Of a stretch of 55,559 bases of DNA, positions 32,679 to 34,781 are shown piece by piece. Where the stretch lies: contig PKSX01000159.1 in assembly GCA_002869435.1 (NCBI GenBank), positions 1 to 55,559 on the forward strand, read 5' to 3'. The stretch comes from Marinilabiliales bacterium (GTDB lineage Bacteria > Bacteroidota > Bacteroidia > Bacteroidales > DTU049). The position numbers and the translations under genes were made by a program. The notes below the pieces were generated by a model. That model was given only the letters and a program-made list of their open reading frames with translations, ran no database searches and had not been told where the DNA came from. Position 1 is the stretch's first letter; the number at the start of each line of letters is the position of its first letter.

Positions 32679-32711
32679 TAAAGAACACAAGGTTTGTTTT
32701 CAGGTTGCCTG
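32679..32711 (-). promoter_or_regulatory. ECF-type promoter motif, copy 2 (CAGGCAACCT-N12-TGTGTTCT)
   Basis: - strand CAGGCAACCTGAAAACAAACCTTGTGTTCTTTA. Both boxes and the spacing are identical to the copy at 34749-34781. It sits 26 nt upstream of the ATG at 32652. Confidence 0.6.
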
Positions 32712-32715
32712 CCGG

Positions 32716-34152
32716 TTAAAAATAAATTCTGAAGCCACCTGAAATTCCTGCGGAGAAATCACCCTGAAAGTCATTTTCGGAGCCGGATCCTGTTTCATAT
32801 ATTTTTTTTCTGAACCAGGGTTGAATTTGTATCGACATTCGCTCATGAATGAAATACTCATATTCCATATTTAACAGGAGAGTGAACCCTAACGATTTAC
32901 TTTCATTTGAAATTTCGGTATACGGTTCTGTGGCATACAATCCGTTATAGAATTTTCCTTTGGTGTTTAATAACAATGAAGTTCCAAAACCTCCGCTTAG
33001 TGATAAAGCCTGATTTCCAAAAGTGAATTTGTGTCCAATCATGATAGGAATCTCAAACACAGTAGATGTGCGTGACCATTTTGCACCATGCAATGTATCG
33101 TAGGCATTCACCAAAGATGTGTCAAATTGCTGAATCAGAGTTGAATCATATTCGGTTACCCAAACAGAATCTGAAACATGGATAACAGAGTCGGAAACAT
33201 AAGTATAATGCCAGTAAGAACTGGTATCTACAGTCCAGAATTGTTGAAGCAGATCATATGACTCTGTTAAATGCTCGTTATATAATAACTCACCTTCATG
33301 ATAACGATCGTAAATATTTAAAAAACGCAGGCCGGATGAAATGAAGAATTTTTTAAACTCAATACGCATTGAAATCTCCGGTATCATTAAAGCACTGATT
33401 GAATTGCTGCGACTCAAATCATATTCTGATTCATAATCGCTAATAGGGGAACTGAATCCACCACCTAGCGACAGTGCAGCAGAGAATAATGGTTTGCCTC
33501 TTTCGTCATTTAATTCATCAAGAACCACAGGCATAACCAAATAATTCTGATCGAGAAAGCTTGAAATTAGAGGAATACGCTTCGGACCTGATAAATCTGC
33601 TTTCGCTCCAATTTCATCAAGAGCCAGAATCTGGTTTACTGATACAATATTCACCTTCGTTTTATTGGGTTGGCCTATGTCACTGTCATTTTCAATATCT
33701 TTTGGAACATTTACTATTTCTACAAACTGGTTTTTGGAATTATCTGGTTCAGAAACATTTTTATCATAGGAATTTTTTGCAGGAATATTGTAGGCAAACT
33801 TATTATTTGCATTATTTTGATTAGAAATACTTTTCTCATCAACAGAGTTACTGGGTTGCGGAAGCACACAATTGGTATATTCAGTAGTTCTGTTTTCAGC
33901 GAAAACTGTTTCTGATAAAGCATTATGCAGAAGAAAATACCTTCCGCCAAAAAGCACTACCAGGGTTGCAATACCCACAAACCAATAGGATCGGATAAAA
34001 GAACTAACTCCCAGAACAAAAACACTGTACCAGGCAACCCTTTTTCGAATCTTCTTAAAGTACAGGTCAGGGGCTTCCATGTGCAGGTCGTTTAGTTTAT
34101 CCCTGCTCACCTGATCAATCATGTGATTCTTATTTTCATTTTTCATGCTCAT
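32716..34152 (-). CDS. Candidate anti-sigma factor / membrane protein with an outer-membrane beta-barrel-like C-terminal domain
   Basis: 478 aa. The start overlaps the sigma gene stop (ATGA, 34149-34152). Short N-terminal segment, hydrophobic span 'VAWYSVFVLGVSSFIRSYWFVGIATLVVLFGG', Asn/Ser-rich linker. The C-terminus ends 'ISGGFRIYF', with an alternating hydrophobic pattern and a terminal Phe. Confidence 0.6.
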   Translation of the reverse strand: MSMKNENKNHMIDQVSRDKLNDLHMEAPDLYFKKIRKRVAWYSVFVLGVSSFIRSYWFVGIATLVVLFGGRYFLLHNALSETVFAENRTTEYTNCVLPQPSNSVDEKSISNQNNANNKFAYNIPAKNSYDKNVSEPDNSKNQFVEIVNVPKDIENDSDIGQPNKTKVNIVSVNQILALDEIGAKADLSGPKRIPLISSFLDQNYLVMPVVLDELNDERGKPLFSAALSLGGGFSSPISDYESEYDLSRSNSISALMIPEISMRIEFKKFFISSGLRFLNIYDRYHEGELLYNEHLTESYDLLQQFWTVDTSSYWHYTYVSDSVIHVSDSVWVTEYDSTLIQQFDTSLVNAYDTLHGAKWSRTSTVFEIPIMIGHKFTFGNQALSLSGGFGTSLLLNTKGKFYNGLYATEPYTEISNESKSLGFTLLLNMEYEYFIHERMSIQIQPWFRKKIYETGSGSENDFQGDFSAGISGGFRIYF

Positions 34153-34730
34153 ACAATTTTTCGAACAACCATCTGCGCTTCCAGTTTATGCTGAATGGCT
34201 GCAATGATCTTTTTTCTAGCTTTAAACAACTGTGTTTTTGAAGTATTTACAGAAATCCCCAGCATCTCGGCAATATCATCATGCGAGCATGACTCCATTG
34301 CATACAGGTTAAAAACCATTCGGTATCCATTTGGCAGGGCCTGTACAATCTTCAAAATTTCTTCGGCACTGATCATTTCATACAGTTCATCAAAAAAAGC
34401 GCTATCCTGCTCATCACTGATAAATTCAAGCGTTAAATCGGGGTCATAAGTAAATCTTTCTTTTTTCCTGTCCCTCAGATAATTTATCGACGCATTTATC
34501 ATGATCCTTTTCATCCATTTCTGAAGCGAGAATTCAGACTGATTTCGAAAAGACTGAATATTTTTAAATATTTTAATGAATGCTTCCTGAAACACATCTT
34601 CCGCATCGGCATATGAGGGAAGATAACGATTGCACACACCAAGCAACATACCTCCATACTTTTTATAGAGCGCCTCCTGGAATTTTCGCTTTCCCTTACG
34701 ACAGCCGGCAATGATTTCTTCGTCAGTCAA
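34149..34730 (-). CDS. RNA polymerase ECF-type sigma-70 factor
   Basis: 193 aa. Region 2 'DAEDVFQEAFIKIFKNIQSF' and region 4 HTH 'SHDDIAEMLGISVNTSKTQLFKARKKI'. The start is the TTG at 34730, because region 2 begins before the first ATG. Confidence 0.9.
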   Translation of the reverse strand: MTDEEIIAGCRKGKRKFQEALYKKYGGMLLGVCNRYLPSYADAEDVFQEAFIKIFKNIQSFRNQSEFSLQKWMKRIMINASINYLRDRKKERFTYDPDLTLEFISDEQDSAFFDELYEMISAEEILKIVQALPNGYRMVFNLYAMESCSHDDIAEMLGISVNTSKTQLFKARKKIIAAIQHKLEAQMVVRKIV

Positions 34731-34748
34731 ATTATCTCGATTCTGTAC

Positions 34749-34781
34749 ATTAGAACACAGTATTCATTGTAAGGTTGCCTG
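34749..34781 (-). promoter_or_regulatory. ECF-type promoter motif, copy 1 (CAGGCAACCT-N12-TGTGTTCT), likely autoregulatory
   Basis: - strand CAGGCAACCTTACAATGAATACTGTGTTCTAAT. It lies 18 nt upstream of the sigma start and immediately after the upstream gene's terminator. Confidence 0.6.

Follow-up and report, generated by a model that had tools for sequence, protein, structure and literature searches.

The window analysed here is the whole 55,559-nucleotide (nt) stretch of contig PKSX01000159.1, from the assembly GCA_002869435.1 of an uncultured Marinilabiliales bacterium. On its minus strand lies a module of three genes, closed by one intrinsic terminator and separated by another from the gene upstream (Table 1). 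The first gene encodes a sigma factor of extracytoplasmic function (ECF) type, which carries regions 2 and 4 only and whose TTG start is conserved in the orthologues. The second encodes a predicted membrane protein, here called the partner, and the third a putative type IX secretion system (T9SS) cargo protein. The subject of this analysis is a bipartite DNA motif that occurs twice in the module, ahead of the sigma gene (P1) and in the gap between the partner and cargo genes (P2), and the question of which sigma factor is likely to read it.

Table 1. Coordinates of the module in the window and of the gene upstream of it (aa, amino acids).
Feature	Position	Strand	Basis or remark
Upstream gene, 386 aa	34835..35995	-	weak DUF4919 match only (E = 0.003)
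Intrinsic terminator of the upstream 386-aa gene	34788..34816	-	13-pair stem followed by TTTTTTT
P1, predicted ECF-type promoter of the sigma/partner operon	34752..34781	-	sequence, position weight matrix, conservation
ECF sigma, 193 aa, TTG start	34149..34730	-	Sigma70_r2 4.7e-18, Sigma70_r4_2 4.8e-16, TIGR02937 9.8e-28
Partner, 478 aa	32716..34152	-	start overlaps the sigma stop (ATGA)
P2, predicted internal ECF-type promoter of the cargo gene	32682..32711	-	boxes and spacing as in P1
T9SS type-A cargo, 450 aa	31300..32652	-	signal peptide, PKD domain, one SprB repeat, Por_Secre_tail
Intrinsic terminator closing the unit	31248..31277	-	13-pair stem, 7 GC pairs

On the minus strand, P1 is composed of CAGGCAACCT (34781-34772), a 12-nt spacer tacaatgaatac and TGTGTTCT (34759-34752), and P2 of CAGGCAACCT (32711-32702), a 12-nt spacer gaaaacaaacct and TGTGTTCT (32689-32682). 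The two copies are identical at 18 of 18 boxed bases and in spacing, exactly as an earlier note on this DNA had reported, and their spacer sequences differ. The distances given in that note are also correct. There are 18 nt from position 34749 to the sigma TTG (21 nt from the end of the -10 box), and the 63-nt gap between the partner stop (32716-32718) and the cargo ATG holds P2, which begins 4 nt past the stop and whose -10 box ends 29 nt ahead of the ATG. The first copy does follow the upstream terminator directly, its -35 box abutting the T-run of the hairpin. The 57 nt between this T-run and the sigma TTG are occupied by P1, and the operon promoter therefore has to be there. Terminator-like hairpins with T-runs are found at the same place upstream of the sigma gene in close relatives. 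Between the partner stop and P2 or the cargo gene, the terminator scan of the window found no terminator. The preference of the earlier note for a cargo start at 32652 is upheld: this ATG is the conserved start, with every orthologue opening with an MKK... signal peptide, and the longer reading frame from a GTG at 32688 was rejected, as that codon lies inside the -10 box of P2.

The motif can be written as GCAACCT-N13-GTGTT or, equivalently, GCAACCT-N15-GTTCT, with the core GCAACC-N14-GTGTT. ECF promoters have been modelled as blocks of 7 bp and 5 bp, separated by 15-18 bp (PMC7776599). With GCAACCT as the 7-bp -35 and GTTCT as the 5-bp -10, the spacer of the motif is 15 bp; the ECF architecture proposed earlier is thus recovered, with an AAC-containing -35, a short GT-containing -10 and fixed spacing within the modelled range. 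From this geometry, transcription from P1 is predicted to start at about 34746-34744, leaving a leader of ~15 nt, and from P2 at about 32675-32673, with a leader of ~21-23 nt. The predicted P2 leader (~22 nt) is close to the mode of 23 nt reported for Bacteroides thetaiotaomicron leaders (PMC7366714).

The earlier note had proposed a genome-wide search for the motif. In the whole assembly (3,353,366 bases), GGCAACCT-N12-TGTGTTCT is found at P1 and P2 only, GCAACC-N11-15-GTGTTC is likewise confined to these two sites, and even the 10-mer CAGGCAACCT alone has two occurrences, again P1 and P2. A scan with a position weight matrix (PWM) gave 31.7 and 29.3 bits for the P1/P2 sites and 21.5 bits for the next best, which has a poor -10. 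Candidates for further regulon members were rejected, as the next PWM matches either fall within genes or are poor in the -10. When the two intergenic stretches are compared without gaps, 23 of 30 positions agree, a similarity reached by 1 of 20,000 shuffles. Together with the uniqueness in the genome, this result indicates that the motif pair is neither chance nor a dispersed repeat.

Orthologous loci were collected through the 478-aa protein from six related genomes, from GTDB/JGI contigs (Bacteroidales/Bacteroidetes metagenome-assembled genomes, MAGs) and from further metagenome contigs. The close loci share the gene order, which is a 385-393-aa gene, a terminator, the sigma, the partner and a cargo of ~450 aa, and both motif positions are occupied in every close locus whose sequence reaches them. 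The 17 sites obtained from nine non-redundant loci have the consensus cAGgCAACCt-N13-GTGTTnT, four of them with a spacer one base shorter. Information per column is 1.5 bit in box 1 and 1.18 in box 2, compared with 0.14 in the spacer and ~0.3 in the flanks. The pattern GRCAACCW-N12/13-GTGTT has 17 matches in seven related genomes, 13 of which fall at these two places; of the other four, three are inside long open reading frames (ORFs), and the reversed pattern, used as a control, gave five matches. The predicted regulon would thus consist of two promoters in each genome. The fourth extra match is intergenic (G008:C51:6045-6070 on the minus strand of a related genome, locus L035; GGCAACCT-N12-CGTGTT), with no obvious gene in the ~400 nt downstream, and may represent a small RNA, a peptide or chance.

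In three of the relatives (L011, L013 and L014), only 11-13 nt separate the -10 core from the sigma ATG downstream of it, and the operon mRNA there should therefore be leaderless or nearly so. Leaderless mRNAs are reported to be uncommon in Bacteroidota (3.7-5.5% of mRNAs). In the MAG contig L014 (1244-2822), a frameshift or else a fault of assembly also divides the partner between two ORFs, of 240 and 291 aa, that overlap; the two promoter sites persist, the second with the -10 GCGTTCT.

For more distant relatives, a direct homologue search with the partner gave four proteins, low-complexity words dominating the candidates, and a profile search was used instead. The profile retrieved 2,634 representatives from a library of 1.84 billion proteins, and of 301 genomes sampled from the order, 24 contain the module according to the hidden Markov model of the partner. 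In 24 of 27 distant loci the partner is immediately preceded by a sigma-sized ORF, and no such ORF is seen in the stretch examined of the remaining three. Both promoter-like sites are present in seven distant loci (L047, L049, L050, L051, L053, L060 and L063), which brings the loci with the motif at both positions to 16 (nine close and seven distant), from several Bacteroidales families. The second site depends on the layout of the locus: it is seen only where the gap between partner and cargo is ~50-90 nt, and is absent where the cargo follows the partner within ~0-20 nt (L058, L061 and a paralogous module on contig C51 of the genome studied here).

In the distant loci the -35 stays (G)GCAACC, and the -10 varies between genomes and matches within each genome. 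The pairs found within genomes are GTGTA/GTGTA, GTGTTCT/GTGTTCT, GTGTTTT/GTGTTTT, GTCTA/GGTCTA, TGTCAAT/TGTCAAT and GTGTCTT/GTGTCTT. The likeness of the -10 region is 7.2 of 10 within genomes versus 6.15 between them (15 genomes, permutation p = 0.00025). The -10 type also corresponds to a feature of the adjacent sigma. In an alignment of 23 sigmas, all 14 that accompany a GTGT[TA] -10 carry two extra residues in the loop just ahead of the conserved W of region 2, and all nine that accompany a GTC-containing -10 have a short GxGSFEGW loop. The loop of the window sigma, SFRNQSEFSLQKW (window 34560-34500, residues ~58-77), is of the long form. We take this region-2 loop to correspond to the specificity loop of sigma-E, which forms the pocket for the flipped -10 base.

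The partner has a conserved N-terminal segment of ~40 aa, a transmembrane (TM) helix, a low-complexity linker of ~150 aa and a C-terminal domain resembling an eight-strand barrel, and ends in the aromatic C-terminus RIYF. Its N-terminal motif PPPxxFxKIRKRVxWYS is conserved in the alignments. The AlphaFold2 (AF2) model places a helix at residues 31-82, an unstructured segment at 83-220 and long strands at 224-477. Its overall confidence is low, with a mean predicted local distance difference test (pLDDT) score of 45.7, and the strand blocks reach 74-89. Foldseek searches with the C-terminal part returned NspA, OmpA, Ail and OmpW (TMt 0.60-0.69). The partner itself has no Pfam match even at E <= 10 and no NCBIfam match. 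Among its homologues, the distant L060 protein matches PF13568 (OMP_b-brl_2; 1.3e-3) and the C51 paralogue PF13505 (9.6e-6), both below cut-off. Residues ~286-357 (window 33295-33080) carry a strongly conserved insert of ~70 residues between barrel strands, YWHYTYVSDSxVHVxDSVW...DSxLVQxFDT...YDT, which AF2 leaves unmodelled (pLDDT below 50) and which could be a surface-exposed sensing or binding module.

The cargo has the signal peptide (N-terminal leader MKKFLLSLVLLGAAFIA) and the C-terminal sorting domain of a T9SS type-A substrate, with matches to Por_Secre_tail (PF18962; 2.8e-15, 56.8 bits, cut-off 27) and TIGR04183 (40.6 bits, cut-off 23). It also matches SprB (1e-07) and PKD_4 (1.8e-06), so that its earlier description as an SprB-repeat T9SS protein is accurate. 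Orthologues in close and distant loci have 447-461 aa.

Taken together, the conservation in 16 loci, the co-varying -10 and the sigma loop argue that P1 and P2 are most likely promoters read by the ECF sigma of the locus itself, which would control a regulon of three genes, namely the sigma, its membrane partner and the T9SS cargo. This supports, from sequence comparison, the compact regulon suggested in the earlier note. In the mechanism that we propose, RNA polymerase carrying this sigma would read both copies of the motif. P1 would autoregulate the sigma-partner operon, and transcription from it would probably continue into the cargo gene, because no terminator precedes the one at 31277. 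P2, as an internal promoter, would contribute further sigma-dependent transcription, confined to the cargo gene. On the analogy of the Dma/Das proteins of Bacteroides, the partner would use its short N-terminus to keep the sigma at the inner membrane, with its C-terminal barrel sitting in the outer membrane. An envelope signal would lead to loss of the partner and release of the sigma, and the free sigma would then fire P1, providing positive feedback and renewed synthesis of the inhibitor, and P2, providing the output. Both the sigma dependence of P1 and P2 and the nature of the signal are what we infer here.

Several observations weigh against this interpretation. The -10 core, GTGTT, contains neither the CGT nor the GTC of most described ECF promoters, and the sigma stays below the cut-offs of TIGR02985 (97.1, cut-off 126.4) and NF058625 (76.5, cut-off 130) and carries no ECF group assignment; the main text of the ECF reclassification paper gives no motif for Bacteroidota groups. 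At least one paralogous sigma of the genome has promoters with the same -35, GCAACC, and cross-recognition by paralogous sigmas is conceivable. The spacer also has a weak within-genome signal (p = 0.02), and part of the -10 co-variation may reflect local composition. Finally, the correlation between loop and -10 may derive from a single evolutionary split, and would then count as about one event.

Sharing of the -35 raises the question of the other sigmas. The genome has ~11 ECF-type sigmas. A paralogous module on contig C51 (10653-14004, locus L037) encodes a 193-aa ECF sigma, similar to the window sigma at 1.2e-43, a 441-aa partner with a weak OMP_b-brl match, and a 484-aa secreted protein. 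The region-2 loop of this sigma is of the short GxGSFEGW form. The motif upstream of the module, GCAACC-N16-TGTCT, is kept in seven loci examined in related genomes. The third gene of this module starts 6 nt past the partner, and no internal promoter is present. Two further intergenic sites, C21:2751-2781 and C155:7262-7292, both on the minus strand, have the same -35 (TCAGGCAACCA and TAAGGCAACCA) with other -10 boxes (GTGTCTG and GTATCTT). The genes downstream of them encode secreted proteins of 554 and 790 aa; paralogous sigmas may target these two sites, or the sites may be weak cross-targets.

On these grounds P1 and P2 could be genuine ECF-type promoters that are read mainly by a different, paralogous sigma: there are several such sigmas to choose from, the closest has a conserved upstream motif with the same -35 core, and other GGCAACC-type candidates precede genes for secreted proteins. 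We consider this unlikely, because no genome examined has the full motif outside this locus, the type of -10 goes with the region-2 loop of the adjacent sigma, and the TGTCT of the C51 paralogue differs in both sequence and register. It is very unlikely that the element is an operator for a conventional repressor or activator, with the true promoter elsewhere or overlapping. It is asymmetric, with no dyad or direct-repeat symmetry, and the close-relative sites hold no other conserved element between the terminator and the sigma start codon. The consensus of the Bacteroidota primary-sigma -7 box, TAnnTTTG (PMC7366714), is present within 100 nt upstream of 34% of the long ORFs in the genome and in none of the 17 regions, P1 and P2 included. 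A scan for the sigma-70 consensus (13 sites, 14.6 expected) is uninformative, as Bacteroidota do not use that consensus. The short distance from the -10 box to the sigma ATG in three relatives also speaks against an operator, and the sigma is the sole regulator gene conserved in the module. What the operator reading retains is that conserved, oriented boxes beside gene starts are typical of transcription-factor sites too, and that the start sites of P1 and P2 are predicted only.

The remaining explanation, that the element is a chance similarity, a remnant of a dispersed repeat or mobile element, or an element acting at the RNA level, draws on a weak window-level shuffle test, in which, with three mismatches allowed, 6 of 100 shuffles gave at least two matches, and is effectively refuted. 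The exact motif occurs at two sites only in the genome, its similarity is rarely reached by shuffled sequence, and the element is conserved in 16 loci. A dispersed repeat was rejected because the motif is present only at this locus in the scans of the genome and of its relatives, which also disposes of the generic intergenic repeat that the earlier note had named as the refuting case. An RNA element was rejected because an Rfam search of both regions had no match at E <= 1, and the leaders at P1 and P2 fold no better than shuffled sequences (z = +1.45 and +0.54).

Promoters read by the adjacent sigma agree with what is known of related systems. In B. thetaiotaomicron, Dma1 binds the ECF21 sigma Das1 through a 40-residue N-terminus, followed by one TM helix, a long disordered tether and an eight-strand outer-membrane barrel, and its loss induces three genes, including the adjacent BT_4719 (PMC10927553). 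Dma2 is encoded in an operon of three genes, and when it is lost, induction is mainly of this operon and of the genes next to it (PMC13088901). Das1/Dma1 correspond to BT_4720/BT_4721, with NigD2 (BT_4719) as adjacent target, and Das2/Dma2 to BT_1559/BT_1558, with BT_1557; EcfO/Reo of B. fragilis is a related pair (PMC10927553, PMC13088901). The window locus resembles these systems in that immediately behind the ECF sigma gene comes a partner whose predicted architecture (AF2/Foldseek) is that of Dma, with a third gene beside or inside the operon, and in its predicted regulon, which like the published Das/Dma regulons would be small and include its own operon and adjacent genes. The partner, called an anti-sigma factor in the earlier note, is therefore best labelled a Dma-type (dual membrane-spanning) anti-sigma-like protein, for which an anti-sigma function is probable by analogy. 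There are also differences. The window partner has no Pfam match, whereas Dma1 is annotated as OMP_b-brl_2 (PF13568), and its barrel region contains the conserved insert. In third place the window locus has a gene for a T9SS cargo bearing an SprB repeat, and not for a NigD-like lipoprotein. In addition, the window locus offers a defined motif and a separate internal promoter, whereas the two papers give no promoter motif for Das1 or Das2 (PMC10927553, PMC13088901).

The promoter of Escherichia coli sigma-E has the consensus GGAACTT-N16-TCAAA. With such canonical autoregulated ECF promoters (sigma-E; general model PMC7776599), P1 and P2 share the overall arrangement of the boxes, the position upstream of the sigma's own operon and a predicted regulon that is local and small. 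They differ in the -35 core, GCAACC and not GGAAC, and in a -10, GTGTT(C)T, from which the customary CGT or GTC is missing, and the sigmas of this sub-clade have a region-2 loop two residues longer than their GTC-reading relatives. ECF control connected with the T9SS is known from PorXY-SigP of Porphyromonas gingivalis (PMC4800418, PMC7712824) and from motif SM6 of Flavobacterium psychrophilum (PMC9723704). These systems likewise tie an ECF-type sigma to type IX secretion in Bacteroidota, with PorA, which bears a C-terminal domain (CTD), feeding the signalling in P. gingivalis. They control genes of the secretion machinery by a two-component system or a wider regulon, whereas the window locus has a single cargo as predicted output and a Dma-like partner. 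By resemblance to PorA and PorXY-SigP, the T9SS cargo might itself be a ligand or co-sensor of the partner barrel, with the ~70-residue insert facing the surface, so that secretion or display of the cargo feeds back on sigma activity. We regard this as rather unlikely; if true, the three genes would form a self-contained circuit that reports how the T9SS functions or how the surface is occupied.

The design, in which an ECF sigma regulates its own operon and is paired with a membrane anti-sigma and a local target, is established and textbook. Four points are new here: the motif is stated explicitly for this branch, the arrangement with two promoters is conserved in several Bacteroidales families, the -10 has natural variants that go with the sigma loop, and the sole predicted output is a T9SS SprB-repeat protein. 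The consensus cAGGCAACCt-N13-GTGTTnT provides a concrete motif for an uncharacterised branch of Bacteroidota sigma/Dma-like anti-sigma systems, and the predicted regulon, with its two promoters and three genes, is as small as such a regulon can be. The -10 variants that track the sigma loop could serve as orthogonal sigma/promoter parts for Bacteroides engineering. The predicted link between a Dma-like envelope sensor and a single T9SS surface protein hints at targets of such sensors outside gut Bacteroides.

Regarding the neighbouring genes, the gene past the terminator that closes the unit encodes a convergent PBP1-type synthase. Synteny with the module extends to the upstream gene listed in Table 1 in those close relatives that have enough sequence to cover it (385-393 aa), with a terminator between this gene and the module.

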